Assembly (NCBI GenBank): GCA_023229365.1 | Contig: JALNZK010000002.1 | Location: forward strand, 62,343 to 126,342 | From: Pseudomonadota bacterium | GTDB taxonomy: Bacteria > Myxococcota_A > Polyangia > JAAYKL01 | Direction of reading: 5' to 3' | DNA length: 64,000 bases | Shown here: positions 4,069 to 21,027 of the stretch, one piece after another | Layout: the number at the start of each line of letters is the position of its first letter | Position numbering within the stretch: the first letter of the stretch is position 1 | Program-made: the position numbers and the translations under genes | Notes under the pieces: generated by a model | What the model saw: the letters and a program-made list of their open reading frames with translations, nothing else | What the model was told of the DNA's origin: nothing | Database searches by the model: none

Positions 4069-5145
4069 ATGTACGATTATTTAATAGTGGGAAGTGGTTT
4101 GTTTGGAAGCACTTTTGCCAGAAAAGCCAAGGATGCAGGACAATCTGTGCTTGTAATCGAGAAAGAAAAACATGTTGGCGGGCATGTACGCACAGAAATT
4201 ATGGATGGAATCATAGTCTCACTATTCGGACCCCACATTTTTCACACCAAACACAAACATGTGTGGGATTTCGTCAACAAATTTAGTGAATTTAATCATT
4301 ATCGTCATCAAGTCAAAGCTAATTACAATGGAAAAATTATTTCTTTGCCATTTAATATGATGACATTCCACCAATTATGGGGGTGTATCACACCTGCTGA
4401 TGTTGAGGCTGAATTAGCAAAACGTCAAATTCCTATCGACAACCCACAAAATATGGAAGAATGGTGTTTAAGCCAATTGGGAGAGGAAATTTACCATACA
4501 TTAATATATCACTATACCAAAAAACAATGGAATCGTGATCCCAAGACACTTCCTGCCTCTATTATTAAAAGGCTGCCAATTCGTATGTCGTATGATGAAT
4601 CATACTTCGATGATCCCTATCAGGGCATGCCCATACATGGTTATACGCCACTAGTGGAAAAAATGTTAGATGGTATAGCCGTGCAGTTGGGAACTGATTT
4701 TAAAGAAATAAAAAATGATTGGAGGAAAATAGGAAAAAAACTTGTATACAGCGGAAAAATAGACGAATTCTTTGATTTTTGTTATGGAGAATTGGATTAT
4801 AGGACTATAGATTTCCAAACTACCGTTTTAGATGGCAATTTTCAAGGCGTAGCTCAAATGAATCACACTGGTGAATTACCAGTTTATACAAGAACCATAG
4901 AACACAAACATTTTTATTTTATAAATTCACCAAAAACAGTCATCACCTACGAGTTTTCGCAAGCCGCAACAAACACAAGTGCTCCAGATTATCCTGTGAT
5001 TGATGATAAAAATAAAAAAATATCTGGACTCTACAAGGCTATGCAAAGTCCAGATATTCTATTTGGAGGAAGATTGGGCACCCATAGTTATTTAAACATG
5101 GATGACTGCATTGATATGGCTTTAAGACTGTCCAGCTTCATATAA
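4069..5145 (+). CDS. glf: UDP-galactopyranose mutase
   Basis: The N-terminus MYDYLIVGSGLFGSTFARKAKDAGQSVLVIEKEKHVGGHVRTE is the typical Glf FAD-binding Rossmann start. The 358 aa length also fits Glf. Confidence 0.85.
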   Translation: MYDYLIVGSGLFGSTFARKAKDAGQSVLVIEKEKHVGGHVRTEIMDGIIVSLFGPHIFHTKHKHVWDFVNKFSEFNHYRHQVKANYNGKIISLPFNMMTFHQLWGCITPADVEAELAKRQIPIDNPQNMEEWCLSQLGEEIYHTLIYHYTKKQWNRDPKTLPASIIKRLPIRMSYDESYFDDPYQGMPIHGYTPLVEKMLDGIAVQLGTDFKEIKNDWRKIGKKLVYSGKIDEFFDFCYGELDYRTIDFQTTVLDGNFQGVAQMNHTGELPVYTRTIEHKHFYFINSPKTVITYEFSQAATNTSAPDYPVIDDKNKKISGLYKAMQSPDILFGGRLGTHSYLNMDDCIDMALRLSSFI

Positions 5146-8028: not shown

Positions 8029-8056
8029 GGCTGCTCCTATTATACTTCAGAAACAG
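8029..8056 (-). promoter_or_regulatory. sigma70-like promoter (TTTACA-N16-TATAAT on minus strand)
   Basis: Plus strand reads ATTATACTTCAGAAACAGAGGTTGTAAA. Confidence 0.6.
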
Positions 8057-8267
8057 AGGTTGTAAACTCTTTTCGTTTAAACCAATAAAAACCCCTGTGT
8101 TTTACCCAGCCGCCTACGGAAATGTAGAAGAAATACTTCCACAACATCGCAAGCCACCCAACCCCATAAATATAGGCAACCCACTCAGAATGGTTGCTGA
8201 ACATCAACAACAATGGCAGAATGATGAGAATAGTTAAAACAATCACAATCTGTAGCGTTGTTTTCAT
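8040..8267 (-). CDS. small membrane protein
   Basis: 75 aa with two hydrophobic helices. Its 3-prime end overlaps the promoter of the downstream gene. Confidence 0.35.
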   Translation of the reverse strand: MKTTLQIVIVLTILIILPLLLMFSNHSEWVAYIYGVGWLAMLWKYFFYISVGGWVKHRGFYWFKRKEFTTSVSEV

Positions 8268-8270
8268 AGG

Positions 8271-8341
8271 GTGGCCGACGAGAATCGAACTCGTATACCC
8301 GGATTCACAGTCCAGTTCCTAAGCCATTCGGACACGGCCAC
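8271..8341 (-). tRNA. tRNA-His (GTG)
   Basis: Cloverleaf readable on the minus strand: acceptor GTGGCCG/CGGCCAC, anticodon loop CTGTGAA, T-arm ACGAG-TTCGATT-CTCGT, discriminator C. The genome does not encode a G at position -1. Confidence 0.6.
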
Positions 8342-8343
8342 AG

Positions 8344-8416
8344 TGAGACCAGACGGACTTGAACCGTCACCTACTTCCTTAAGAGGGAAGAATGCTGCCG
8401 CTAACACCTTGGTCCC
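8344..8416 (-). tRNA. tRNA-Lys (CTT)
   Basis: Acceptor GGGACCA/TGGTCTC, anticodon stem CTTCC/GGAAG with loop CTCTTAA, T-arm GACGG-TTCAAGT-CCGTC. Confidence 0.6.
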
Positions 8417-8421
8417 AAAAA

Positions 8422-8703
8422 TCATTCAAAATCCACAATCTGACAACGACGATCAGAGTGATATTTTCCCAACACAACTTCCAACATTTCTTTATCAGAA
8501 AGAATTCCCTTGTCCGACAAAGTAGAAACTAAATTGCCGAGCACTTCGGCAAGTCTTTTGATCCTATCTTCGATTCCATTGTGCCTGTCGTAGAAGTCAT
8601 CCTTTCCTTCCATGACAAAATGCTCAACAAATTGTTCAACAGAAAATTCCTCAACAAATTCACCAGTGCTTGGGTGCGGAGTACCAAATCTTACTGTTTT
8701 CAC
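8422..8703 (-). CDS. hypothetical protein
   Basis: 93 aa ORF. Confidence 0.35.
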   Translation of the reverse strand: MKTVRFGTPHPSTGEFVEEFSVEQFVEHFVMEGKDDFYDRHNGIEDRIKRLAEVLGNLVSTLSDKGILSDKEMLEVVLGKYHSDRRCQIVDFE

Positions 8704-8918
8704 GATTCACCTCCTCCAAATAACGCTTCCAAATCTTCAGCGTCAATCACTCGCTGTCCATCGCTCAGTTGATAGACTTTCAGCTTCACGCCACCTAAAT
8801 CCAAAACGCCTCTGTGTGTGGCGAATGGAACTTCACCATCCAATTCTGGCGGTTCGGCAGGAAGAGACTCCCACTCCACCCCATCCAACAAAATTTGTAT
8901 TGGAGATTTGGATTCCAT
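8700..8918 (-). CDS. hypothetical protein
   Basis: 72 aa ORF with a consensus promoter 9 nt upstream. Confidence 0.4.
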   Translation of the reverse strand: MESKSPIQILLDGVEWESLPAEPPELDGEVPFATHRGVLDLGGVKLKVYQLSDGQRVIDAEDLEALFGGGES

Positions 8919-8927
8919 ATTGCCCTC

Positions 8928-8955
8928 ATTATACTTCAGAAATTGACGTTGTAAA
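8928..8955 (-). promoter_or_regulatory. sigma70-like promoter (TTTACA-N16-TATAAT on minus strand)
   Basis: Plus strand reads ATTATACTTCAGAAATTGACGTTGTAAA. Confidence 0.6.
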
Positions 8956-9207
8956 CCAATTCATTACCACGGCTTTCATTTGATCGCCAAACTCTTCAAT
9001 AGCTGCCTCAACCTCCCTGAAATCATCCCCTTCCTGCCACAAAACATCAGAACACTCCATCATCCCCTTCGGACTAAAATCAAACAAACGCTCAACAACT
9101 TCAAGTTTCTGCTCTCTTGTTAGTTGCATCTCATCCTCCACAACCACAAGGACTAAAATCCATATTTCGTTCTTTGGATAATTTATCAATACTTCCGTCT
9201 TCTGCAC
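8929..9207 (-). CDS. hypothetical protein
   Basis: 92 aa ORF. Confidence 0.3.
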   Translation of the reverse strand: MQKTEVLINYPKNEIWILVLVVVEDEMQLTREQKLEVVERLFDFSPKGMMECSDVLWQEGDDFREVEAAIEEFGDQMKAVVMNWFTTSISEV

Positions 9208-9400
9208 ATGTTTTACAAATTACCACATGTTCTTGACCATCGTGATATAATCGACAACCAACAAATATTCCGCACGACTCACAAGGAAATCCATCTCTGG
9301 CTTCGTTGGCTAAATTCCAATTACTCATTTTACATGTCCCCAATTTGCTATAGCAAGTGATTCTGTCCAGCGTCCAAACAGTGGATGCTCCCAAAACCAC
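9131..9400 (-). CDS. Cys-rich zinc-ribbon protein
   Basis: 89 aa with CESCG...CKTC...CGCGG cysteine pairs. Confidence 0.3.
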   Translation of the reverse strand: MVLGASTVWTLDRITCYSKLGTCKMSNWNLANEARDGFPCESCGIFVGCRLYHDGQEHVVICKTCAEDGSIDKLSKERNMDFSPCGCGG

Positions 9401-9525
9401 TCGTTATTCACCAATGGCGGATTTAATATCCTTTTCCATCCATTGGCCCTCAACTTTGCACGCCTTTGCCAACTATCTGTCAGCATTTCAGCAACTTCTG
9501 TCAGTGCTTTTTCACCAATAGTCAT
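9325..9525 (-). CDS. hypothetical protein
   Basis: 66 aa ORF. Confidence 0.3.
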   Translation of the reverse strand: MTIGEKALTEVAEMLTDSWQRRAKLRANGWKRILNPPLVNNEWFWEHPLFGRWTESLAIANWGHVK

Positions 9526-9539
9526 GATTATTCTCCAGG

Positions 9540-9611
9540 GTGACTAACGGGAGTCGAACCCGCTAAAACCTGATCCACAGTCAGGCCCCTAACCGTTCGG
9601 GATTAGCCACC
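9540..9611 (-). tRNA. tRNA-His (GTG)
   Basis: The extra 5-prime G(-1) is encoded and pairs with discriminator C. Acceptor GTGGCTA/TAGTCAC, anticodon stem CCTGA/TCAGG with loop CTGTGGA. Confidence 0.6.
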
Positions 9612-9866
9612 ATATTTCGTAATCCTAATCGACACCCACTCTGACTCTCCTCTTGGAAGAATACCAACCTGAAGCACGTTGTCCATTTTCCAATCAACAA
9701 CGGAATCATCGCAATATAACGAAAATTCCGATATAATGTCCTCAACATACAATCCTAAATCTTCCCAAAAAGCTGCTGATTGGAAAGCAATTCTCTGAAT
9801 TGACAAAAGCAATCGTCTTATTTGTACTCTGGTTATATTTTTTCCACATAACAATGCCAAGTCCAT
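9603..9866 (-). CDS. hypothetical protein
   Basis: 87 aa ORF. Its 3-prime end overlaps the tRNA by a few nucleotides. Confidence 0.3.
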   Translation of the reverse strand: MDLALLCGKNITRVQIRRLLLSIQRIAFQSAAFWEDLGLYVEDIISEFSLYCDDSVVDWKMDNVLQVGILPRGESEWVSIRITKYGG

Positions 9867-10018
9867 GTCACACCTCCATGATCTAAATCGATGTTATAGC
9901 CAGTTTTAGTGATTTTGATTATAACACCATCACCCGCCCGTTTGGGACACAACACCTTAACCCTATCGCCAATTTCAAGTAATTTTTTCATAAGCAGGAG
10001 TGCTAGGATTCGGACCAA
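9833..10018 (-). CDS. hypothetical protein
   Basis: 61 aa ORF. Its 3-prime end overlaps the tRNA-Trp 3-prime end, so the exact stop is uncertain. Confidence 0.25.
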   Translation of the reverse strand: MVRILALLLMKKLLEIGDRVKVLCPKRAGDGVIIKITKTGYNIDLDHGGVTWTWHCYVEKI

Positions 10019-10065
10019 GATCGACGGTTTTGGAGACCGTTATGCTACCATTGCACCACACTCCT
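9995..10065 (-). tRNA. tRNA-Trp (CCA)
   Basis: Acceptor AGGAGTG/CACTCCT is perfect. Anticodon stem ACGGT/ACCGT with loop CTCCAAA. T-arm TTCGAAT-like. Confidence 0.6.
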
Positions 10066-10071
10066 TCGCAG

Positions 10072-10146
10072 CAGCACCGCCAGGACTCGAACCCGGATCG
10101 CCTCGATTTGGAATCGAGTGCCCTAAGCCATTTGGACCACGGTGCT
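10072..10146 (-). tRNA. tRNA-Trp (CCA), second copy
   Basis: Acceptor AGCACCG/CGGTGCT, anticodon stem CTCGA/TCGAG with loop TTCCAAA, T-arm CCGGG-TTCGAGT-CCTGG. Confidence 0.55.
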
Positions 10147-10223
10147 GTATTTGAATGCTGTGGGTCGTGTGGGCGTGGCATTGCTAGGCAACGGCGTTTC
10201 CTCGGAACACCACAGCATTCAAG

Positions 10224-10302
10224 AGTCGGCAGGCGGAATCGAACCACTTAACATCTGATTTGCAATCAGACCCCCAGCCTTCGGAGATTAGTTTCTGCCG
10301 AC
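10224..10302 (-). tRNA. tRNA-Cys (GCA), atypical long D-region
   Basis: Perfect acceptor GTCGGCA/TGCCGAC. Anticodon stem TCTGA/TCAGA with loop TTGCAAA. T-loop TTCGATT. At 79 nt it carries about 6 extra nucleotides in the D-arm region. Confidence 0.45.
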
Positions 10303-10308
10303 AATTCA

Positions 10309-10386
10309 GTGGAGCTAGAGGGAGTCGCACCCTCAGTTACCAACGTACCCATTGTAGGTTTTACGTTAGACTCGCTTTGTAGCCCC
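10309..10386 (-). tRNA. tRNA-like element, anticodon undetermined
   Basis: Acceptor GGGGCTA/TAGCTCC (one G-U pair) and T-arm GAGGG-TGCGACT-CCCTC are clear. No canonical 5-bp/7-nt anticodon arm can be folded, so this may carry an insertion or intron or be a decoy. Confidence 0.35.
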
Positions 10387-10614
10387 TTATCTTTTTGGAC
10401 CTTGCCAATCATCCCTGTATTTATATGTAAATTCAGCATCAATTGGCGTGTTCAATCCTTCCTCTCGCAACATTTCCTCAAGAGCATCAGCCACTTCATC
10501 ATAAACATCACAACGCTCTTGTTCTACGGCCCAAGTCCATGTGCTGCCGGTAGGCGTATGACTTGCTTTTTCCCTTAATTGAGCAATATATGCTCTAATC
10601 TTTTCCGACTTCAT
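10387..10614 (-). CDS. hypothetical protein
   Basis: 75 aa ORF. Confidence 0.35.
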   Translation of the reverse strand: MKSEKIRAYIAQLREKASHTPTGSTWTWAVEQERCDVYDEVADALEEMLREEGLNTPIDAEFTYKYRDDWQGPKR

Positions 10615-10813
10615 CTTTCTTTCCCTTTTTCTTCTTTTCTTTTGGTGCTGATTTCAAACTTTCAATCAAAACTTTTACCTCAGCATTTTCCGCAAGTTTA
10701 GTTATCAACTCATTCAATCCATGAATCTCCAAACCTTGCCTTGTCGTTTGTTTCACAAGGTCTTGTATTACACCCTGTGGATCAGTTTGACAGCGTTCTT
10801 CAAAGGTTATCAT
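10595..10813 (-). CDS. hypothetical protein (Lys-rich C-terminus)
   Basis: 72 aa ORF. Confidence 0.35.
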   Translation of the reverse strand: MITFEERCQTDPQGVIQDLVKQTTRQGLEIHGLNELITKLAENAEVKVLIESLKSAPKEKKKKGKKDEVGKD

Positions 10814-10814
10814 T

Positions 10815-10997
10815 TTACCCTCTCACAACATCATGGATTTTTGACGGAGCTTGAACAACATCTATGATTTCAAAACCAGGAGGCATATATTTTTGTGCCT
10901 CATCCCAAGCTTCGCTCACACAAGCGGCGGCTACACTGATCTTTGGTGTCTTAACCTTTTCCTTGATGTTTTTCTTGAACTTTACAAGATATTGCAT
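10815..10997 (-). CDS. hypothetical protein
   Basis: 60 aa ORF. Confidence 0.3.
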   Translation of the reverse strand: MQYLVKFKKNIKEKVKTPKISVAAACVSEAWDEAQKYMPPGFEIIDVVQAPSKIHDVVRG

Positions 10998-11166
10998 GTT
11001 TCATCCTTTGCATCAAAATTTACACAATCACATTCCCAGCAGCAGCCTTCTTCGTCATGTGCTTCTGAAAGATGCCCACAGGAACATATCATTTTCTTAT
11101 ATCGACTGCAAGAGGGGTCGTGACCACCTCTCAAATCCCTTTCGCATTCGCTACATTCGATGCTCA
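10982..11166 (-). CDS. Cys-rich small protein
   Basis: The listed ORF's N-terminal extension runs through two tRNA genes. I shortened it to the internal Met MSIECSECERD..., which has an AAGGAG Shine-Dalgarno upstream. The protein is 61 aa with multiple CxxC pairs. Confidence 0.35.
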
Positions 11167-11182
11167 TATCATTCTCCTTTAG

Positions 11183-11253
11183 CTGCCCCGTAAGGAATCG
11201 AACCTTATCTTTCTCGTTCAGAGCGAGACGTGCGGCCACTACACCACGGGGCA
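11183..11253 (-). tRNA. tRNA-Gln (CTG)
   Basis: Acceptor TGCCCCG/CGGGGCA is perfect. Anticodon stem TCTCG/CGAGA with loop CTCTGAA. T-arm TAAGG-TTCGATT-CCTTA. Confidence 0.6.
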
Positions 11254-11259
11254 AAATAG

Positions 11260-11331
11260 CTGGGCTGGAAGGATTCGAACCTTCACGAACAGATTCAAAG
11301 TCTGTCAGGCTAACCGTTACCTCACAGCCCA
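11260..11331 (-). tRNA. tRNA-Gln (TTG)
   Basis: Acceptor TGGGCTG/CAGCCCA is perfect. Anticodon stem ACAGA/TCTGT with loop CTTTGAA. T-arm GAAGG-TTCGAAT-CCTTC. Confidence 0.6.
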
Positions 11332-11429
11332 AAAATTTGGTAAATATTTCGGTGTTCCACAGCTTAAACTGCCGAGGTTAGAGGCTGTCCATCCTCACCG
11401 AGGTTATCGGCCACCGTATCGCCAACTTG

Positions 11430-11510
11430 GGACATTTAGCAGGGGCAGAAGGAATTGAACCTCCGAGTGCTTTCGCATGCAGCTTCAAAGACTGCCGGGG
11501 TCTGCCAACA
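11430..11510 (-). tRNA. tRNA-like element, anticodon undetermined (possible degenerate or insert-containing tRNA)
   Basis: A T-arm (GGAGG-TTCAATT-CCTTC) and a G-rich acceptor are present. The putative anticodon region contains a GCATGC palindrome inside a 13-nt loop, so no canonical anticodon arm forms. Confidence 0.3.
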
Positions 11511-11529
11511 ACCCCAATACCCCCATGTT

Positions 11530-11612
11530 TGCAACCAACTGGAATCGAACCAATATTTCTCCGGTGTCGGGAACGTTTTGCCTTAGGCCGCTTTTTGCCA
11601 ACCCTTGTTCTA
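11530..11612 (-). tRNA. tRNA-like element or tRNA pseudogene
   Basis: A T-arm (ATTGG-TTCGATT-CCAGT) and a 3-prime acceptor strand TGGTTGC are present. No matching 5-prime acceptor strand or anticodon arm was found. Confidence 0.25.
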
Positions 11613-11654
11613 GAATTGAATTAGTTATTACGACCCCTTAAACTATAGTTGCAA

Positions 11655-11728
11655 GTGAGACCGTTGGGATTCGCACCCAAAACCTACGGCTTAAAAGGCC
11701 GTTGCTCTACTAATTGAGCTACGATCCC
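11655..11728 (-). tRNA. tRNA-Lys (TTT)
   Basis: Acceptor GGGATCG/CGGTCTC with G-U pairs. Anticodon stem ACGGC/GCCGT with loop CTTTTAA. T-arm TTGGG-TGCGAAT-CCCAA. Confidence 0.55.
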
Positions 11729-11818
11729 ATATAAGGAAAAGATTGCCAATCTTTATTACAGCAGCACAACCTTTGCAGGAAACCCTGGGAAAAGGATTTT
11801 ATGGCCACAAACCTTGAG

Positions 11819-11890
11819 TGGGTCCACTCGGAATCGAACCGAGGTCAAAACATTAAGAGTGTTCTATTCTAGCCGCTGAACTATGGACCC
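11819..11890 (-). tRNA. tRNA-Lys (CTT), second copy
   Basis: Acceptor GGGTCCA/TGGACCC, anticodon stem GAACA/TGTTT with loop CTCTTAA, T-arm CTCGG-TTCGATT-CCGAG. Confidence 0.55.
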
Positions 11891-11922
11891 AAAGGATAAA
11901 CCAAATTGTCAAAGATCACAAG

Positions 11923-11993
11923 TGGGTCCACGGGGAATCGAACCCCGATAAACTGGGTAAAAGCCAGTTATTCTGCCATTGAATTACGAACCC
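11923..11993 (-). tRNA. tRNA-Lys (TTT), second copy
   Basis: Acceptor GGGTTCG/TGGACCC, D-stem ATTC/GAAT, anticodon stem ACTGG/CCAGT with loop CTTTTAC, T-arm CGGGG-TTCGATT-CCCCG. Confidence 0.55.
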
Positions 11994-12643
11994 TACAACC
12001 ACTCTTCATTCACAAAACCACAATATTCTTGAATTGCTCCATAAATGTGTTGCACCATATGAGTGTCGCACACCCTTAAAGAACAAACTCCAAACTTATG
12101 CTTATTCTTTTTATACCCGCCACCTTCTCCCTCTTTGAAAACTCCCTTTCGCAAACTGCTATGGTCTAATTTCAAAATTCCAAGCCAATAATCTTCAATC
12201 TCTTTTTTTGATAGACCATTGTTTAAATAACAATTGATGCATATTGTATACTTTTGTTTTGGGAAGTAGGTATCCACAAATTTTTTAAATGCACAAATGA
12301 CATTCGCATCCGTATTCGCCAAGCTTGCCACATTTCTACTTTTTGTTCCTTCTGCCCAATACAGCGTACAACCCAACAAATGCTGCAACTCTCCCTTTTT
12401 CGCCTGCTCCCTCCCCTCTTGCTGATATTGTTTCCTAATTGCCAAATATTTTTTTCTTGTTCCTTCTTTGCCAGCAAACCCTATTCTTCCATCTAAATTC
12501 TTGCGTTTCGTTTGCGACATTTTTATGGGGCGTGTCCATACACTTGCTGTTGATTTAGACACACCCAACAAATTCACTATTTCACCAAGCGACTTACCTT
12601 CTTTCCTCAATTGTTTGGCTTTTTCTTTTAACTCTTTTTTCAT
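11993..12643 (-). CDS. HTH-domain protein, putative LAGLIDADG-like homing endonuclease
   Basis: An N-terminal helix-turn-helix (SLGEIVNLLGVSKSTASVW) is followed by an LLGCTLYWAEGTKS segment that resembles the LAGLIDADG/GEG dodecapeptide. The gene abuts the 5-prime end of tRNA-Lys inside the tRNA array. Confidence 0.4.
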   Translation of the reverse strand: MKKELKEKAKQLRKEGKSLGEIVNLLGVSKSTASVWTRPIKMSQTKRKNLDGRIGFAGKEGTRKKYLAIRKQYQQEGREQAKKGELQHLLGCTLYWAEGTKSRNVASLANTDANVICAFKKFVDTYFPKQKYTICINCYLNNGLSKKEIEDYWLGILKLDHSSLRKGVFKEGEGGGYKKNKHKFGVCSLRVCDTHMVQHIYGAIQEYCGFVNEEWL

Positions 12644-12698
12644 AATAGAACCTTGCCTTTCTACCTATATATAATAGCAAAGTTCTATTTTTTTCAAG

Positions 12699-12772
12699 TC
12701 GTGGCTTTGAGAGTCGAACTCAACACGGAATCCTTATCAGGGATTCCAGGGCAAACCGGCCCGTCAGCCACG
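12699..12772 (-). tRNA. tRNA-Ile (GAT)
   Basis: Acceptor CGTGGCT/AGCCACG is perfect. Anticodon stem (GG)AATCC/GGATT(CC) with loop CTGATAA. T-arm TTGAG-TTCGACT-CTCAA. Confidence 0.6.
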
Positions 12773-12777
12773 TATTT

Positions 12778-13488
12778 TCAATTCAAACTCGGATCGCACT
12801 TTGGAAACATATCAAAGAACGAACTTTTCCTTTCTTTCAATGGTTTTGATTCATACTTATACTTTTCATCAAGAGACCCCAGTCCCCTGGGATAACCCTC
12901 CAAAACTGTCAAACAACCTACAGCATCGCCCCAGGTCCAGTTGTTGGCAAGAGACTCTTTTGCAAACTCTGCCATGTAAGCTCTTGCTCTTGGAACCAAG
13001 CCATCATCCATCTTGTCGTTATACAAATCTTTTGCATAACTTAGAAGCCTGATAGCTTCCATAAGCACCAACAAATAACTTTTTTTTCCAAAATCCAATG
13101 GCACACCCAGAAGCATGTTACCTTCTGTTGCCACAACGCAAACAAAGGAAAAATCACCCAAAGCCACAGGAGTCACACCTGAAAGCATCAATTTTGAACT
13201 AAATTGTGACAATTCCTTCAAAGCATCGAGTGGTATAGTATTAAATTTATCAAACAAATGTTGAAGCAACTTCATTACCCTCCGTCCTTGCAAAGCAACA
13301 GGATCATCGGGTGGCAAATTATCAATCCTTGGAATTGTGTCCATCATAATGCTCCTAAAGCCAATAAAAAAAGCCCTGTCCAGTTTTTTACCTGAACGGG
13401 GCTTTTCAATACCAACCCGGCTCAGGCATTTGTCCTGAGCCACGGTGCAACTCAGAACAGATCGCCAGTAATGCAGCAATGCTGCCAC
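12778..13488 (-). CDS. hypothetical protein
   Basis: 236 aa ORF with a probable GTG start. Confidence 0.45.
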   Translation of the reverse strand: MAALLHYWRSVLSCTVAQDKCLSRVGIEKPRSGKKLDRAFFIGFRSIMMDTIPRIDNLPPDDPVALQGRRVMKLLQHLFDKFNTIPLDALKELSQFSSKLMLSGVTPVALGDFSFVCVVATEGNMLLGVPLDFGKKSYLLVLMEAIRLLSYAKDLYNDKMDDGLVPRARAYMAEFAKESLANNWTWGDAVGCLTVLEGYPRGLGSLDEKYKYESKPLKERKSSFFDMFPKCDPSLN

Positions 13489-13537
13489 TTTTGTTTCTGT
13501 TGTTTTTGTTGCTTCGACATTATTCTTTTTCCTTCAG

Positions 13538-13611
13538 TGGCGGGAGTAGGATTTGAACCTACGGCCTCAAGGTTATGAGCCTTGCGAGCTACCAGACTGC
13601 TCCACCCCGCA
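13538..13611 (-). tRNA. tRNA-Met (CAT), initiator-like (1:72 mismatch)
   Basis: A standard 73-nt cloverleaf. Acceptor TGCGGGG/TCCCGCC has an unpaired position 1:72. D-stem GAGC/GCTC. Anticodon stem CAAGG/CCTTG with loop CTCATAA. T-arm GTAGG-TTCAAAT-CCTAC. Confidence 0.55.
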
Positions 13612-13632
13612 TCATGTTTTCAAAAATTAAGT

Positions 13633-13703
13633 GGCAGGGGCGGGGGATGATCCCGCTTTCATTTGGTTATGAGCCAAATAAGATAACCGTACCTACCCCC
13701 TGC
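13633..13703 (-). tRNA. tRNA-Met or tRNA-Ile2 (CAT)
   Basis: Acceptor GCAGGGG/CCCCTGC is perfect. Anticodon stem TTTGG/CCAAA with loop CTCATAA. The T-loop is atypical (ATCATCC). Confidence 0.45.
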
Positions 13704-13996
13704 GTCATGTTCATATATATGAGTATAGCTTGAAATTTTTTTCTGTCAATCCCTATTTTTCGGATTTTTTTCGGCGTAAACCAAAAATGGCTCCGAGTCG
13801 CCTTGCCACTATTCCCGCTCCAATGGAGACATTAGCTTATCGGGGTTTGCTGTCGCCGTTTCTCGGAGGTTGCCAGCTTGCTCTTCCATTAAATTTGTCA
13901 ATCAACAACCCTTCTGATTCCGAAGAATCCGCACATGGTTAAGAGGCGTGCCGTGCGTAGCAAAACCCTCATATTGTTGATTGACAAATTGACAAA

Positions 13997-16432: not shown

Positions 16433-17102
16433 CCACCGTTTTCAGAATTTTAATCAGCTTTTCCATATCCACATCTGCGGGCAACGAACGATATTCCACC
16501 CGCCCATCGTGCTTGATCTCGTAGAAACCCGGTCGTCGCTTAGCTTCTTTGATTTCTTCGGCAAATGCAGCATCCAACTTCAAGAAAATTTGTGGCCAAT
16601 CAAAATTGACGTTGTAGATACGTTCTTTGCAATGTCCGCATGACTCACAAGCATCTTCTGTAAAACTGGTCTCTTGGGTGAAGCTGACATGTACGCCCGC
16701 TGTGCCTTCCAGCATTGCATTTTTGTGTGTTTCGTATCCATAAAAGTTTTGATACTTCACCAACGGCTTAGTGAAATATCTTGCGGATTGCAACCTTACG
16801 GTCTTAGGAACCTTCATGATTGGCACATCTGACAATCTGAATGGTAATCCAGCAAAGAAGGTTTCGGCGTTAATTTCTGCCAGCGTCTGCTCAATCTTGT
16901 AAATTTCTGCCTTTAAGCTAAACACGGCATCAACAGGGTTGCTAAAAGGTTCGCCCCTTGCTTCAACCAACCAGCCGCAATCATCGTGTGGTAAACGAAG
17001 TAAGGAATGCCCGCCAGTCCCGGTCGGATTTACAGCAGCCAGAGAAACAGGCTCGCCGTCTTTTGTTAAAAGAAAAAATTCTTTTTCTAAACCAATTCTC
17101 AT
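16422..17102 (-). CDS. hypothetical protein, possible carboxylate-amine ligase (GCS2-like)
   Basis: The N-terminus MRIGLEKEFFLL resembles the G(I/V)E.EF start of glutamate-cysteine-ligase family 2 and amidoligase enzymes. This is a weak call. Confidence 0.3.
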   Translation of the reverse strand: MRIGLEKEFFLLTKDGEPVSLAAVNPTGTGGHSLLRLPHDDCGWLVEARGEPFSNPVDAVFSLKAEIYKIEQTLAEINAETFFAGLPFRLSDVPIMKVPKTVRLQSARYFTKPLVKYQNFYGYETHKNAMLEGTAGVHVSFTQETSFTEDACESCGHCKERIYNVNFDWPQIFLKLDAAFAEEIKEAKRRPGFYEIKHDGRVEYRSLPADVDMEKLIKILKTVVYT

Positions 17103-17134
17103 ATTTGTTCCTCCATGACAAAACTATAACTAAA

Positions 17135-17839
17135 TCAGCCCTGCAATGCAATACCAAACTTCTCTCGCATCAACAGCTTTGCTTTTTGAAGCAATTGATG
17201 GATATACGGACTTGATACCCCCAATTGCTTGGCAATCTCTTTCAGTGTTTTTCTTTCAATATAATGTTCGTGAAGAATTTGTTTTGCTCTTGTTGTAAAA
17301 AATGTATCGCCAGAATGCATGGTGAACAATTCATCTACCAAGTCTGCGTTTGAAGACCGTGGATCAACAATTTGCATTTCAGTGAAGTCTACCAACTCTT
17401 CATGATATTTTATTTTTCTTTGTTTATATCCATCAAGAATGGCATTTCGCATACAGCGAATAGCATAACTAGACCATGTGCATTCATGTTGCTGGGCTAA
17501 GTCTGGTGTCCAGCTTTCCACGGCTCTCCACAAGCCCATCAAAGCATCGGAATATTCTTCGCTATTTTCTACATCTTCATTAGACTTGAGAAAAGTTAAA
17601 GCCGAAGAGCGAGCCAGCTTCAAATTGGCCTCGACGGTTGGCTTGACGAACCTTAGCTCTTGTGTGCTTTGGTCGTCTTGCAGTCCCGATGTAGAAATAG
17701 GGGACGGAAGAGTGAACGATTTTTTCTTCAAAGCAATTGTCATAAAGCCCTCGCAGACCAAAGTGTTTTTGCACTTCGGACCAACTTGCTTACACGACAA
17801 GCACTTCGGACCAACCTGCGTTGATGATTTAATAGACAT
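17135..17839 (-). CDS. sigma-70 family sigma factor (second copy)
   Basis: C-terminal region 4.2 helix-turn-helix (TLKEIAKQLGVSSPYIHQLLQKAKLLMREKF) and a region-2-like segment (ALMGLWRAVESW...YAIRCMRNAILDGYKQRK). Confidence 0.55.
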   Translation of the reverse strand: MSIKSSTQVGPKCLSCKQVGPKCKNTLVCEGFMTIALKKKSFTLPSPISTSGLQDDQSTQELRFVKPTVEANLKLARSSALTFLKSNEDVENSEEYSDALMGLWRAVESWTPDLAQQHECTWSSYAIRCMRNAILDGYKQRKIKYHEELVDFTEMQIVDPRSSNADLVDELFTMHSGDTFFTTRAKQILHEHYIERKTLKEIAKQLGVSSPYIHQLLQKAKLLMREKFGIALQG

Positions 17840-20037
17840 TACAACAAATTCTTCAAGGTGTCAACATCAATGATGGGAATTCCTAACGCCGTTGCCTCAG
17901 CCGACTTATCACCACTACCATCTCCAGCCACCAGATATTTTACTTTTTTGGATACACTTCCAGCACACTTGCCACCCAATTCTTCGATCTTTGCTTTCCA
18001 GAATGTTTTACCTTGCGGCAAACTACCACTGAGGCAGAAGGTCACGCCTGTTAGTTTTCCGATTTTGGGAAGTTGCAAGTCAAAATGTTGCAGCAGCCGG
18101 TTGATTTCTTGCGAATGCAATTGCAGGTAAGAATAAATGATTTCGGCTGTCTTTTTACCAACCCCATCCGTGCCCTCAAGTTCATTAACGCTAGCTGCCT
18201 GTATCTTGTCAATACCCCGAAAGTGAGAAATTAAAGATTTTCCCGAATCCTCCCCTGCTGTGGGAATACCCAGGGCAGCAAAGAACTTCCAGGCATCCAC
18301 CTTCTTGGGGGTTTTAATTGCTGCTGTTATTTGTGTCGCAAGCTCTTTATCATCAATATGTTCGGGATCGTGAATCATATGAATGGCAGCCACGGTCAAC
18401 AGTGATTCTCGCTCCGAAAGCCCTGCCGCCATGCAATCTGCGGCGGAAAGAGAATAAAAATCGGCTCTGGTGGTAATTTTACCACTGGACATGAGCATTT
18501 CAACAGTTGCCTCTCCCAATCCCAGGCAACCCAAGACCTTAAACCAATGACAATAATTGCTCAATTGCTTCGCTGGACAGTCGGAATTCTCACATCGAAG
18601 TTCCCACATTTCCTCCCTATTACCTTTGGCGGGGGTGTGAATACTGGCCGTAGGCTTGCCACACGATGGGCAAGTTTTGGGATAGGTTGGGTCACACGAA
18701 TTAGATTTGACACCCACCACCTTGGGGATAATGTTCCCGGCTTTTTGGACAAGTATTTCTGTGCCCAGGCCAATTTTCTTACGAATCATAAATCCGAGAT
18801 TATGGAGCGTGGCACGGGCTACATTCGTGTCGGCCAAGCGAATGGGAGCAAAAATAGCAACGGGTTTAATGACCCCAGTGCGACCCACATTCCACTCAAT
18901 GGCTTTAATGATTGCAGGCTCACGTTCCTCAGCGAATTTCCAAGCAATCTTGCCCCGTGGATTACCATCGGGTTTATCACCGTGGGTGCCCAAGTGACTC
19001 TGTTCATCCAAGCTTTCTACACCAATCACAATCCCGTCAACCCGATAATCCAGAGAGGGGACTTCTGCCTCCATCTTTGCCAAATCAAAGAAATTAAAGC
19101 TTCTGCTTTGCACAAATCGAATGCATGGCTCATTCGGATGTGCTGAATCGTAGCCCAGATTTTTATTGACCCAAATAGCCTTTTCGGTTTCGGTACTGTA
19201 AGGAATAGGGGAACTATCATTCCACGTAATCCCATGAGCAATGCAAGTTACCAAATGATATTTGGTTTTCTCGGGATCATTGAATTGTCGGATACCACCG
19301 ACTGCCGCTGATCGTTGGTTAGAAAATTCTTTTTCCCCCTGTTGTCGCTTCCAATCTTGAACCTTGGGGAAATCGGAAGTCAAAACAATCAATTCACCCC
19401 GAATGGCACATGTGATCGGAACTTTGAGCTTTGTGGGAATGCCCTTCACATATTTGGCTTGCTCTGTGACATCTTCCCCATATTCTCCATCCCGTGGACG
19501 CAAACCAGCCGAAACCAATTCCCCCTTCTCATAATAGAATTGAATAGAAACTCCATCCAATTTCCATTGCTGATAAAAATAGCCACGGGGATAAGTTACG
19601 TTGCTGCCCTTGTATTTCTCTCCATCCAGAACATAAAACTTGCCTTCCCGAACCGACTTGGGGGCTTTCTCTGTGCAATCTGAAATCCACTTCCAAAGTT
19701 GTGCTTTTTGGATTTCCAAATCCTCATGGCTTGCTTTGTCGATGGAGGTCAGCAATGGGACGTGTTTTACCTTCTTTGTGGAAATTACCCGCTTTGAAGC
19801 CGTAACAGTTTTGAAGATTTTGGAGTCAGAACGATTAGCCTGGAGGGTGCCCTTGAGCATATCGTATTTTGGGTCGGATACGGGGGTTGCAGCATCCAAC
19901 CCCAAGAGTTTCAACATATCATCCGATGTATCGGCGGGGATTAGGCAATCTTCGCCGTCATCAAATCGAGTATCCAACTCAGCAATAATGGCTTCCAACT
20001 CATCGCACTGACTGGCATTCAATTTCGGGTAATTCAT
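17839..20037 (-). CDS. ligA: NAD-dependent DNA ligase LigA
   Basis: 732 aa with the ATLHN OB-fold motif, a Cys4 zinc finger (CPSCG...CENSDCPAK), helix-hairpin-helix repeats and a C-terminal BRCT domain (FCLSGSLPQGKTFWKAKIEELGGK). Confidence 0.85.
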   Translation of the reverse strand: MNYPKLNASQCDELEAIIAELDTRFDDGEDCLIPADTSDDMLKLLGLDAATPVSDPKYDMLKGTLQANRSDSKIFKTVTASKRVISTKKVKHVPLLTSIDKASHEDLEIQKAQLWKWISDCTEKAPKSVREGKFYVLDGEKYKGSNVTYPRGYFYQQWKLDGVSIQFYYEKGELVSAGLRPRDGEYGEDVTEQAKYVKGIPTKLKVPITCAIRGELIVLTSDFPKVQDWKRQQGEKEFSNQRSAAVGGIRQFNDPEKTKYHLVTCIAHGITWNDSSPIPYSTETEKAIWVNKNLGYDSAHPNEPCIRFVQSRSFNFFDLAKMEAEVPSLDYRVDGIVIGVESLDEQSHLGTHGDKPDGNPRGKIAWKFAEEREPAIIKAIEWNVGRTGVIKPVAIFAPIRLADTNVARATLHNLGFMIRKKIGLGTEILVQKAGNIIPKVVGVKSNSCDPTYPKTCPSCGKPTASIHTPAKGNREEMWELRCENSDCPAKQLSNYCHWFKVLGCLGLGEATVEMLMSSGKITTRADFYSLSAADCMAAGLSERESLLTVAAIHMIHDPEHIDDKELATQITAAIKTPKKVDAWKFFAALGIPTAGEDSGKSLISHFRGIDKIQAASVNELEGTDGVGKKTAEIIYSYLQLHSQEINRLLQHFDLQLPKIGKLTGVTFCLSGSLPQGKTFWKAKIEELGGKCAGSVSKKVKYLVAGDGSGDKSAEATALGIPIIDVDTLKNLL

Positions 20038-20367: not shown

Positions 20368-20662
20368 GACCTTTGGAGTTTGATAACAGAAAGTTGCCCC
20401 AACAAATAAGCCTTATACAGAGCCTGAGTTGATCGGTCGCATCATCCTTGATTGGCTCAGGAAAAAAAAGACCAATATTTTTGGACAAGGATGTGTCTTT
20501 AAATTCATCCCATACCAACGCAAGTTGTGCCTCCAATGCAGCTTCTTCGCTGCCGCCCAGCACCAAACATTCGGTACGTTTTTTGGCAAACTCGACTGCC
20601 CTTGCCATAACCTCAGCGGCATTCTCTGGCTCTTTGGGCTCTTTTCTGGTTTCAATATTCAT
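20315..20662 (-). CDS. hypothetical protein
   Basis: 115 aa ORF. Confidence 0.35.
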   Translation of the reverse strand: MNIETRKEPKEPENAAEVMARAVEFAKKRTECLVLGGSEEAALEAQLALVWDEFKDTSLSKNIGLFFPEPIKDDATDQLRLCIRLICWGNFLLSNSKGHDERYRKNTVRTVEGNY

Positions 20663-21027
20663 TTTTCCACCTTTGTTATCTTCCCAAAAATGTTATCGGC
20701 ACCAATGGTGCCATTGGTGTGTTTTTTGTTATTGCCGATTTGATAAAGCACACAACCCATTTTTTGTTTAACAGCTTCTACCAAGTGAATATAATAATGC
20801 CCCTTCACCTTGCAGAATACTATATCACCTTTTTCAACAATTGCAATACGGTGGTCTTTTTCTTTGATTGGCTCGATAGTCACCAAATCACCGCTGCTGA
20901 TCTTTGGCTCCATTGAATTACCTTTGGGTCGAATCTGGACTCTTTTTCCAGCCTTCAGGTCATCAACGTGTTTTAACCAATCCATTATTCTACATCTTTC
21001 AGAAAAACTTTTCACTTTGATTCCCAC
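20659..21027 (-). CDS. S24 family peptidase (LexA/UmuD-like protease domain)
   Basis: RPKGNSMEPKISSGDLVTIE matches the GDSMxP/GD motif of S24 peptidases. No N-terminal helix-turn-helix is evident. Confidence 0.5.
   Translation of the reverse strand: MGIKVKSFSERCRIMDWLKHVDDLKAGKRVQIRPKGNSMEPKISSGDLVTIEPIKEKDHRIAIVEKGDIVFCKVKGHYYIHLVEAVKQKMGCVLYQIGNNKKHTNGTIGADNIFGKITKVEK

Follow-up and report, generated by a model that had tools for sequence, protein, structure and literature searches.

We examined a 64,000-nucleotide stretch of contig JALNZK010000002.1 (positions 62,343 to 126,342 of the forward strand; hereafter the window), which carries on its minus strand an island of transfer RNA (tRNA) genes between positions 8269 and 13703. 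The expression of this tRNA array is probably gated by a ribosome-mediated transcription attenuator of the leader-peptide type, in which a 22-codon leader open reading frame (ORF) is followed by a chain of alternative RNA helices that ends in an intrinsic terminator. Judging from these features, the array would most likely be a demand-driven supply with negative feedback, in which the transcription of phage tRNA genes limits itself; the direction of the switch and its physiological trigger are proposed with less confidence than the attenuator. An earlier reading of the same DNA (the original prediction) had described the island together with an RtcB RNA ligase. Taken alone these two are ordinary for a huge phage, and the leader-peptide attenuator, which lies inside the interval covered by that prediction and is absent from it, is the most informative feature.

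A leader ORF that matches the downstream tRNAs

The promoter-like site at 13749-13722 obtained the top score of a regional scan and ends ~18 nt upstream of the first tRNA gene, while the total count of promoter-like sites in the region was not above shuffle expectation. Two tRNA genes with a CAU anticodon follow, and the leader ORF starts 16 nt past the second of them, on the tRNA strand and upstream of every tRNA that it "names" (Table 1). Its codons are ATG TCG AAG CAA CAA AAA CAA CAG AAA CAA AAG TGG CAG CAT TGC TGC ATT ACT GGC GAT CTG TTC TGA. A Shine-Dalgarno sequence (AAGGA) is found at 13530-13534, 9 nt before the ATG (13520); the 5' part of the unit thus contains a short ORF with a ribosome-binding site and a start codon, as expected of an attenuator.

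Codons 3-17 (13470-13514) specify no amino acids but Lys, Gln, Trp, His, Cys and Ile, exactly those of the tRNAs encoded downstream, and the leader uses both AAA/AAG and CAA/CAG, matching the UUU/CUU and UUG/CUG anticodon pairs. Among ~128,000 windows of 15 codons (six frames, 64 kb), this was the sole one in which 15/15 codons are readable by the array, and the next independent sensor-like window reached 13/15. The background fraction was 0.258 and ~2e-4 windows of 15/15 are expected by chance in the whole window, which places the run of sensed codons, another feature expected of an attenuator, far above background. The leader also ranked 1 out of the 465 short ORFs (6-45 codons) on its strand. 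A sensor-like run of 13/15 on the plus strand (8625-8669) was rejected as incidental: it is antisense to a minus-strand ORF with an EQFVE repeat, and there are no plus-strand tRNAs.

Predicted structure of the attenuator RNA

The attenuator RNA comprises six segments (S0 to S5) that can form a chain of alternative, mutually exclusive helices: S0:S1, S1:S2, S2:S3, S3:S4 (the antiterminator) and S4:S5 (the intrinsic terminator). S0 corresponds to leader codons 3-9, S1 includes the stop codon UGA (13452-13454), and the U7 tract lies at 13366-13372. ViennaRNA assigned -16.1 kcal/mol to S1:S2, -19.5 to S2:S3, -21.0 to S3:S4 and -21.8 to S4:S5. With the same program, the S1-S4 stretch alone folded into S1:S2 plus S3:S4, the antiterminated form (-37.1 kcal/mol), and the full untranslated leader folded into S0:S1, S2:S3 and the terminator. 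The folding z-score of the attenuator was -5.0, and 0/200 shuffles were equally stable.

The terminator (GCCCCGUUCAGG/CUGGACAGGGC plus U7, 13402-13366) is located between the leader and the downstream genes. The antiterminator shares a strand with it and is coupled by helices to the part of the leader that a ribosome would occupy, as computed from the folds. Both are features of an attenuator. In one respect the unit departs from the classical pattern, since the genes downstream are an ORFan, a helix-turn-helix (HTH)/LAGLIDADG-like gene and tRNA genes, and not genes for a synthetase or for biosynthesis of the sensed amino acids. We detected no other terminator-like site on the minus strand between 13378 and 8552, which fits a single long read-through transcript. 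Rfam contained no family matching the attenuator element.

Conservation in a related genome

Homologues of the NAD-dependent DNA ligase LigA led to a relative, L007 (LigA 66% identical, LigA-sigma synteny), whose 3' end has the architecture TTGACA...TATACTCATATATA: a TTGACA-17-TATACT site, one CAU tRNA, a leader, a hairpin and a terminator. The non-canonical CAU tRNA of the window (13633-13704) has no counterpart there. The L007 leader (MSVKFGQKHKCKWQHCCITDTLS, then stop), with GGGAG 7 nt before its ATG, has the core KWQHCCIT. It consists only of K, Q, H, C, W and I from Gln7 to Ile18, with V, F and G at positions 3, 5 and 6, and the N-terminal half of the peptide is unlike that of the window leader.

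L007 retains the four-helix topology (S1:S2 -15.3, S2:S3 -10.6, S3:S4 -13.6 and terminator -20.2; z = -5.2), with a hairpin GGCUCAGG/CCUGAG and a terminator AAAGCCUUGCUCAGG-gaaa-CUUGAACAAGGCUUU followed by a U-rich tract. Several pairs of the terminator stem differ between the window and L007, including one double compensatory change (C-G to U-A). A core of 22 nt (TGGCAGCATTGCTGCATTACTG) is identical in both, synonymous positions included, and forms a small hairpin; that it acts as a pause element is speculation. The other copies of the phage are 99.7-100% identical, with the array identical or nearly so in three samples, and copies of the same phage at this identity carry no covariation signal. 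A pattern search with the leader core returned one chance match inside a long ORF in IMG/VR, and no match in the metagenome and GTDB genome collections, not even to the phage itself.

Analogous units in phages of 635-642 kb

Similarity of the tRNAs led to LR745206.1 (634,780 bp; L017) and its relatives LR756502.1 (L020) and LR756504.1 (L021). Their arrays are built of a repeated order of short ORF, terminator and matching tRNAs, with nine units in the three phages (Table 1). The codons TCG, TCA, TCT, AGT, CGC and CGA of the Ser/Arg leader of L017 are all readable by the tRNAs behind it. The RNA of this unit (20594-20726) shows the classical 1:2 / 2:3 / 3:4 arrangement, in which two partners compete for the leader segment GAGAUUCGAUUG: the upstream CAUCGAA and the 5' arm of the terminator, CUCGAAUC.

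An objective screen, for a terminator at most 200 nt upstream of a tRNA and an ORF end at most 130 nt upstream of the U-tract, recovered 7/9 units; the two missed were the Lys mini-leaders MKTKLKYKR and MKTKRKYKR, which have hairpins without a strong U-tract. We also ranked the units by the enrichment of the leader in codons read by the tRNAs that follow it. Across ten units (these nine and that of the window), the leader was top-ranked among the short ORFs on its strand in seven cases, and the others ranked 2, 3 and 16. Cross-pairings within a genome were not enriched, except for two paralogous Q/Y leaders. We put forward only tentatively, as a possibility short of an even chance, that "translation-capacity sensor" leaders occur in huge phages from two or more unrelated lineages, each tRNA block being transcribed only when the matching host tRNAs fail.

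tRNA genes of the array

ARAGORN identified 15 tRNA genes in the island (His-GTG x2, Lys-CTT x2, Lys-TTT x2, Trp-CCA x2, Cys-GCA, Gln-CTG, Gln-TTG x2, Ile-GAT and Met-CAT x2), only on the minus strand, and none elsewhere in the 64 kb. The Rfam tRNA covariance model confirmed 13 of these 15 at its gathering score (30.2-69.4 bits), and laxer filters added a 16th gene at 11530-11652 (33.5 bits). The island of the original prediction is therefore real: every tRNA that it listed was recovered, plus a second Gln-TTG, and most of its hand-folded cloverleaves were accepted by both programs. It had also mentioned tRNA-like extras, one of which (10309-10386) remained sub-threshold.

Table 1. Features of the window, ordered along the minus-strand transcript, and leader units of the 635-642 kb phages. 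Leader peptides end at a stop codon.
Feature	Location	Strand	Basis or remarks
Sigma-70-type promoter-like site, TTGACA-16 nt-TATACT	13722-13749	-	11/12 consensus positions
tRNA CAU, non-canonical	13633-13704	-	ARAGORN; Rfam 31.9 bits, barely over gathering score
Initiator-like tRNA-Met(CAU)	13537-13611	-	ARAGORN; Rfam 59.2 bits
Leader ORF, 22 codons, MSKQQKQQKQKWQHCCITGDLF	13452-13520	-	Sequence
Attenuator RNA	13366-13512	-	S0 13496-13512, S1 13447-13459, S2 13431-13443, S3 13415-13428, S4 13391-13406, S5 13373-13383
ORF189 (189 aa), first gene past the terminator	12778-13347	-	ORF list, gene call
tRNA-Ile(GAU), putative	12698-12772	-	ARAGORN only
ORF216 (216 aa)	11993-12643	-	N-terminal helix-turn-helix, putative C-terminal single LAGLIDADG-like domain
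tRNA-Lys(UUU)	11922-11993	-	ARAGORN; Rfam 64.1 bits
tRNA-Lys(CUU)	11818-11890	-	ARAGORN; Rfam 66.3 bits
tRNA-Lys(UUU)	11655-11728	-	ARAGORN; Rfam 69.4 bits
tRNA-like gene	11530-11652	-	Rfam tRNA 33.5 bits (lax filters only); not called by ARAGORN
tRNA-Gln(UUG)	11439-11524	-	ARAGORN; Rfam 30.2 bits
tRNA-Gln(UUG)	11259-11331	-	ARAGORN; Rfam 64.3 bits
tRNA-Gln(CUG)	11182-11253	-	ARAGORN; Rfam 57.6 bits
tRNA-like element	10309-10386	-	Rfam tRNA 17.8 bits, sub-threshold; folding z = -3.0
tRNA-Cys(GCA)	10223-10302	-	ARAGORN
tRNA-Trp(CCA) x2	9994-10146	-	ARAGORN; Rfam 60.3 and 51.3 bits
tRNA-His(GUG)	9538-9611	-	ARAGORN; Rfam 45.8 bits
tRNA-Lys(CUU)	8343-8416	-	ARAGORN; Rfam 48.5 bits
tRNA-His(GUG)	8269-8341	-	ARAGORN; Rfam 56.3 bits
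RtcB RNA ligase (468 aa)	74-1480	-	Pfam PF01139 E=9.5e-89; PHROG 1075
NAD-dependent DNA ligase (LigA)	17839-20037	-	
UDP-galactopyranose mutase	4069-5145	+	
Two sigma-70-family proteins	window		Profile searches, Pfam/PHROG
DNA polymerase	window		PHROG-405
Radical-SAM protein and amidoligase	window		Profile searches, Pfam/PHROG
Leader MTTNSTHKNFSKSHKWFSNQSFGTESVLSLN	L017		His, Phe, His, Phe, Trp follow
Leader MKTKLKYKR	L017		Lys x4 follow
Leader MKTINNTSKSSSRSSSMSEIRLYS	L017		Arg-ACG, Ser-UGA x2, Ser-GCU, Ser-GGA follow
Orthologues of the three L017 units	L020		tRNAs of the same types follow
Q/D/Y-rich leader	L021		Asp follows
Leader MKTKKQQYKQYQPQYKTVMGVYSLFGT	L021		Tyr, Tyr, Gln follow
Leader MRTILIIKKKKRDAIPIKIE	L021		Lys x3 follow

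The array covers only seven amino acids, and eleven of its genes scored 45-69 bits in Rfam with intact identity features. The tRNA-Met at 13537-13611 has a 1:72 mismatch and A11:U24, which we take to be initiator marks, and the CAU tRNA before it, either Met or Ile2, has 7/4 acceptor/T stems and the T-loop AUCAUCC. All three tRNA-Gln genes show a weak 1:72 pair and G73. The tRNA-His genes differ at the key identity position -1: the one at 9538-9611 encodes G-1 (G at 9611) opposite C73, and the one at 8269-8341 has T. Copies that share an anticodon are 58-69% identical (66% for the two tRNA-Trp genes), which rules out that the redundancy arose by recent tandem duplication; these copies would be old or independently acquired. 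A suppressor tRNA or a recoded stop was ruled out as well, since there is no CUA, UCA or UUA anticodon, all three stops are used, and long ORFs are found in code 11.

The density of the array, which the original prediction had called unusual, is ~2.8 tRNAs/kb, compared with ~9/kb in the LR745206 array. Repeats of the same anticodon or isoacceptor are also found elsewhere (His x2, Phe x2, Lys x4 and Ser x4 in LR745206; Pro-TGG x3 in an Erwinia phage), and by this comparison both density and redundancy appear ordinary for huge-phage arrays.

Two sequence repeats lie around the array. A direct repeat of 36 nt (8032-8067 and 8921-8956, 83% identical) contains TTTACA-16-TATAAT on the minus strand and is probably a recurring phage promoter; the promoter-like site of one copy (8928-8955) precedes the final two tRNA genes. 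Between genes and upstream of the array promoter lies an inverted repeat of 17 nt, AATTTGTCAATCAACAA, which is perfect and has its arms at 13892-13908 and 13974-13990, separated by 65 nt; a related copy is found at 9679-9700, and the inverted repeat may be an operator.

Unusual tRNAs and tRNA-like elements

For the putative tRNA-Ile at 12698-12772, we obtained no Rfam tRNA match in a 151-nt stretch even at E<=10. Its minimum free energy (MFE) structure is a clean cloverleaf (z = -3.9) in which the D stem has 3 bp and G8 replaces U8. A tRNA-Ile(GAU) also precedes the homologue of the HTH protein at the matching position in a related array, ERZ27247363 (L013), and in L015 it abuts the other end of the homologue, on the opposite strand.

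The best Rfam match of the tRNA-Cys was tRNA-Sec, with 27.3 bits, under the gathering score of 47. According to ARAGORN it has 8-bp acceptor, 4-bp T and 6-bp anticodon stems, U73, a variable region of ~5 nt and an irregular D arm. The 8/4 stems (GUCGGCAG/CUGCCGAC and GUGG/CCGC) are present in the ARAGORN and MFE structures alike (MFE z = -3.4) and give the 12-bp acceptor branch that defines 8/4 tRNAs; when read as 7/5, G8 replaces U8 and an A-C mismatch appears. Mukai et al. 2017 (PMC5389517) describe 8/4 tRNAs for Ser and His in phage tRNA clusters and, in bacteria, the 8/4 selC* tRNA-Cys, which has a long variable arm and sometimes a bulge. The tRNA-Cys of the window is similar to these in its 8/4 stems, long anticodon stem, U73, GCA anticodon and resemblance to tRNA-Sec, but the phage 8/4 tRNAs of that study are Ser/His, and the short variable region and irregular D arm set it apart from the selC* type. 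It appears to be an 8/4 tRNA-Cys from a phage, a combination that Mukai et al. 2017 do not list.

The tRNA-Gln(UUG) at 11439-11524 is 86 nt long and has a 14-nt extra arm (class-II-like), with Gln-type acceptor features kept. Similar extra arms are found in three tRNA-Lys of LR745206 (L017 20257-20520, plus strand). In the gene at 11530-11652 the acceptor and T arms are intact, but 58 nt are inserted in the D-arm region and the anticodon loop is irregular; it is either a disrupted tRNA or an insert-bearing tRNA. The element at 10309-10386 combines good acceptor and T arms with a D region that is truncated and an "anticodon" loop of 13 nt. Both could be pseudogenes, insert-bearing tRNAs that need processing (by RtcB, perhaps) or non-tRNA RNAs.

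Two observations were made in other arrays. In L013 (442-538, plus strand), a tRNA-Lys-like gene carries a hairpin insertion of ~21 nt within its anticodon loop, far below the size of a group I intron; ARAGORN gives this gene an undetermined 4-nt anticodon. In a remoter relative, L011 (JGI 3300018080, LigA 51% identical), a run of tRNA-like units occupies 17000-18700 of the plus strand, with GTCCCCTAC...GCTTACAAAC before each unit and GACTTGGACGG after each. Rfam sees in this run only two full-length tRNAs and one partial tRNA match, and the arrangement may reflect insertion or processing elements.

Protein genes in and beside the array

ORF189 had no Pfam or PHROG match and is an ORFan: among 5.8 billion proteins, homologues were found only in the same phage. 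ORF216 is probably a homing-endonuclease-type mobile gene of tRNA arrays, and its HTH and LAGLIDADG-like family adjoins tRNA genes in 5/5 contexts (the window, L013 777-1442, L014, L015 and L016). A long hairpin precedes the start codon of this gene in the window (~12646-12690) and in L013 (729-775), and could mask the ribosome-binding site. Two array ORFs on the minus strand, 10982-11167 and 9131-9328, are rich in Cys (~9/61 and 8/65 residues), with CxxC pairs, and are zinc-ribbon-like; Cys makes up 2.4% of the codons in the window.

The RtcB gene of the original prediction was confirmed. Its product matched PF01139 over the full length of the profile with 299 bits (cut-off 27), and the motifs DIAC, GSGNH, HSGSRG, HHN and SHGAGR were kept in the alignment to P. 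horikoshii RtcB, where they correspond to the metal-binding sites and the GMP-histidine. The enzyme is thus intact and apparently active. The gene is in the same genome and outside the operon of the array, and a distance of 6.8 kb that includes plus-strand genes separates it from the last tRNA. The nearest viral RtcB (60% identical) is on a 527-kb IMG/VR contig, which shows no further synteny and has no tRNA within 10 kb of that gene. Past RtcB, beyond position 1 of the window, contigs L004 (11574-19168) and L005 (5976-15975) encode MpsC-like, metallophosphoesterase, thioredoxin, cytidylyltransferase-like (CTP_transf_like) and NAD synthase/CN-hydrolase proteins, which may be an NAD-salvage set.

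Genomic setting

The G+C content is 34-47% across the window and the GC skew is steadily negative. ORFs are densely packed, with 71 out of 99 on one strand, mostly minus. Identical proteins were found on a 100-kb ENA contig, two Logan contigs and a 340,072-bp NCBI contig, and the window is probably part of a ~340-kb genome of a huge phage. This is indicated by PHROG matches to DNA polymerase, sigma factors, amidoligase and RtcB, by the dense small ORFs and the 340-kb contig, and by the 527-kb IMG/VR contig on which the closest viral RtcB relative sits. Two points weigh against certainty: no capsid or terminase gene was found within the 64-kb window, and the NCBI record labels the 340-kb contig as a "Proteobacteria bacterium" metagenome-assembled genome (MAG). 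The closest cellular homologues of the phage LigA (47-50% identity) are mostly in Planctomycetota MAGs, which would be a weak hint at the host, at odds with that label.

The island had no match in INPHARED by megablast, and protein-seeded scans of IMG/VR with ORF189, the 210-aa neighbour and LigA found no close relative. The UDP-galactopyranose mutase gene (4069-5145) lies on the opposite strand with a local GC of 0.37, compared with ~0.45 on either side, and may be a separately acquired cassette.

Proposed mechanism

Transcription from the promoter at 13749-13722 would produce the two CAU tRNAs and then the 22-codon leader. When aminoacyl-tRNAs are plentiful, the ribosome would reach the stop codon and cover S1, S2:S3 and the S4:S5/U7 terminator would form, and transcription would end at ~13366. 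When any of the sensed tRNAs is scarce, whether by infection-induced decay, cleavage by host nucleases or plain demand, the ribosome would stall on S0, S1:S2 and the S3:S4 antiterminator would form, and the polymerase would read through ORF189, tRNA-Ile, the HTH/LAGLIDADG-like gene, three Lys, three Gln, Cys, two Trp and His tRNAs, and the final Lys and His pair. In this scheme the translation of the leader, the direction of the switch, the extent of read-through and the cause of tRNA depletion are inferred from sequence.

Several points weigh against the attenuator. The equilibrium MFE structure of the full transcript always retains the terminator, even with ribosome footprints masked; the switch must therefore be kinetic (co-transcriptional), as in classical systems. 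Equilibrium MFE cannot demonstrate this switch, and the argument for it is built on segment-wise alternative helices instead. The first gene past the terminator is the ORFan ORF189 and not a tRNA gene, and the attenuator might chiefly control this protein. Some of the downstream tRNAs, the last two among them, could be expressed independently, from the promoter-like sites at 8955-8928 and 8066-8039 and perhaps from further ones. A leader of the window type was found in just one relative, L007, so that the covariation rests on two sequences, and the L007 contig ends ~400 nt later, before any downstream tRNAs. Among the analogous units, the geometry of the Lys unit of L021 (5822-5950) seems to give the opposite direction of control, and the leader design was not seen in the arrays of Erwinia phage pEa_SNUABM_47, Caulobacter phage CcrColossus and Prevotella phage Lak-B1.

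Alternative explanations

The original prediction had interpreted the island as a signature of counter-defence and translation takeover. In such an account the array is constitutive, divergent tRNAs replace host tRNAs cut by nucleases, RtcB re-ligates, and the ORF and hairpins are incidental. A real array with redundant isoacceptors, in a genome that looks like that of a huge phage and also encodes an apparently active RtcB, is supported; codon matching, unusual density and linkage to RtcB are not supported. Lys, Gln, His, Trp, Cys and fMet tRNAs are each targeted by some known tRNase, the divergence of the same-anticodon copies shows that they are not recent duplicates, and several copies have unusual structures that could alter recognition. 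A link between RtcB and the tRNAs is plausible biology, but the gene stands apart from the array behind plus-strand genes and its 60%-identical relative has no tRNAs nearby. We consider this account unlikely as a replacement for the attenuator, because it leaves unexplained the unique 15/15 leader, the four alternative helices and their conservation; as the cause of the shortage it is compatible with the attenuator, and would complement it more than compete with it. Selfish DNA is another candidate source of the redundancy: homing-endonuclease-type genes resident in tRNA arrays would duplicate or bring in tRNA genes as a by-product, several of the copies being pseudogenes in decay that have no selected function. 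This would account for the HTH and LAGLIDADG-like family next to tRNA genes in every context, for the two or three tRNA-like elements that look disrupted and for the poor scores of the Ile and second Met calls. It is quite unlikely in our view, given that the eleven well-scoring genes keep their identity features and the array is preserved across three samples, and it would explain the origin of the copies but not the leader and attenuator.

Codon-usage compensation, by which the array would supply codons used much more by the phage than by its host, is very unlikely. AAA and CAA each account for 69% of the Lys and Gln codons, and Cys at 2.4% looks high for a bacterial-type genome. However, counts over 14,077 codons from the long ORFs of the window showed that, apart from Lys (7.4%) and part of Ile, the amino acids served by the array are the five that are used least (Gln, Cys, His, Met and Trp). 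The abundant codons favoured in AT-rich DNA for Asn, Asp, Tyr, Phe and Glu (AAT, GAT, TAT, TTT, GAA), as well as TTG/TTA, have no array tRNA, whereas tRNAs for the minority codons AAG and CAG are included (CTT x2, CTG) and the Ile tRNA cannot read ATA, which makes up 30% of Ile codons. The match to an AT-rich codon bias claimed in the original prediction for Lys, Gln and Ile was thus not borne out. Hardest to credit is that the short ORF is a chance or unrelated peptide, the hairpins simply terminating a two-tRNA (Met) operon and the downstream tRNAs using their own promoters. The terminator is strong, extra promoter-like sites exist downstream, and promoter-like counts overall are at chance level. 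Against this, the single 15/15 window, where ~2e-4 are expected, falls in the array, on the right strand and with a Shine-Dalgarno sequence and an ATG; the antiterminator equals the terminator in stability and is chained to the stop codon of the ORF; L007 preserves the ORF with its core as well as the helix topology; and the same logic recurs in the lineage of L017, L020 and L021.

Implications

It has long been asked why phages carry tRNA genes, and codon usage, decay of host tRNAs and evasion of tRNA-cleaving defences have been proposed as answers. If leader-peptide attenuation is correct, the phage itself would monitor those tRNA pools and respond to shortage, and the question would become directly testable. 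If, moreover, the more tentative reading of such leaders as sensors shared by unrelated lineages holds, phage tRNA arrays would be inducible, self-limiting replacement systems and not constitutive aids to codon usage, and their leaders would spell out the host tRNAs that each phage expects to lose, e.g. to anticodon-nuclease defence or infection-induced decay. Classical attenuation, known for amino-acid operons, would be extended to tRNA genes and to viruses. The signature, a leader composition equal to the downstream anticodon set, is searchable in viral metagenomes, and such units could provide compact, programmable "tRNA-shortage" sensors for synthetic biology.

Comparison with known systems

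The array shares with the tRNA clusters of T4, T5 and huge phages (PMC7162821) its location on one strand, the interspersed small ORFs and homing-endonuclease-type genes and the redundant isoacceptors, and differs from them in its predicted attenuator leader and in covering just seven amino acids. The strings "attenuat", "leader" and "RtcB" do not appear in that study of huge phages (Al-Shayeb et al. 2020, PMC7162821), and full-text searches of the literature returned nothing relevant on attenuators or leader peptides before phage tRNA genes, an absence that is no proof of novelty. The presence of an RNA ligase alongside Lys tRNAs is reminiscent of the repair by T4 Pnkp and Rnl1 of the damage caused by PrrC, but the ligase of the window belongs to another family and has no genetic linkage to the array. 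RtcB joins RNA ends that carry a 2',3'-cyclic phosphate and a 5'-OH.

T-box riboswitches also report the supply of charged tRNA through a choice between terminator and antiterminator. They bind uncharged tRNA without a ribosome and control synthetase or amino-acid genes, whereas the unit of the window has an ORF predicted to be translated, no specifier-loop or T-box sequence and no T-box match in Rfam.

The closest likeness is to the leader-peptide attenuators of E. coli and Salmonella (hisL, trpL, thrL, ilvL, and pheM of pheST), which have an ORF with sensor codons, overlapping helices and an intrinsic terminator, and in which the position of the ribosome decides. In the Salmonella his leader, A:B, C:D and E:F compete with B:C and D:E. 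The three-tier helix chain of the window resembles this his leader, and the sensing of several amino acids together resembles the ilv and thr leaders. Unlike the attenuators of amino-acid operons, the unit of the window is probably encoded by a phage, lies within a tRNA array directly behind an initiator-like tRNA and would sense six amino acids that equal the downstream tRNA set. It lies outside every described leader family because the genes that it would regulate are tRNA genes, and not those for biosynthetic enzymes or a synthetase.

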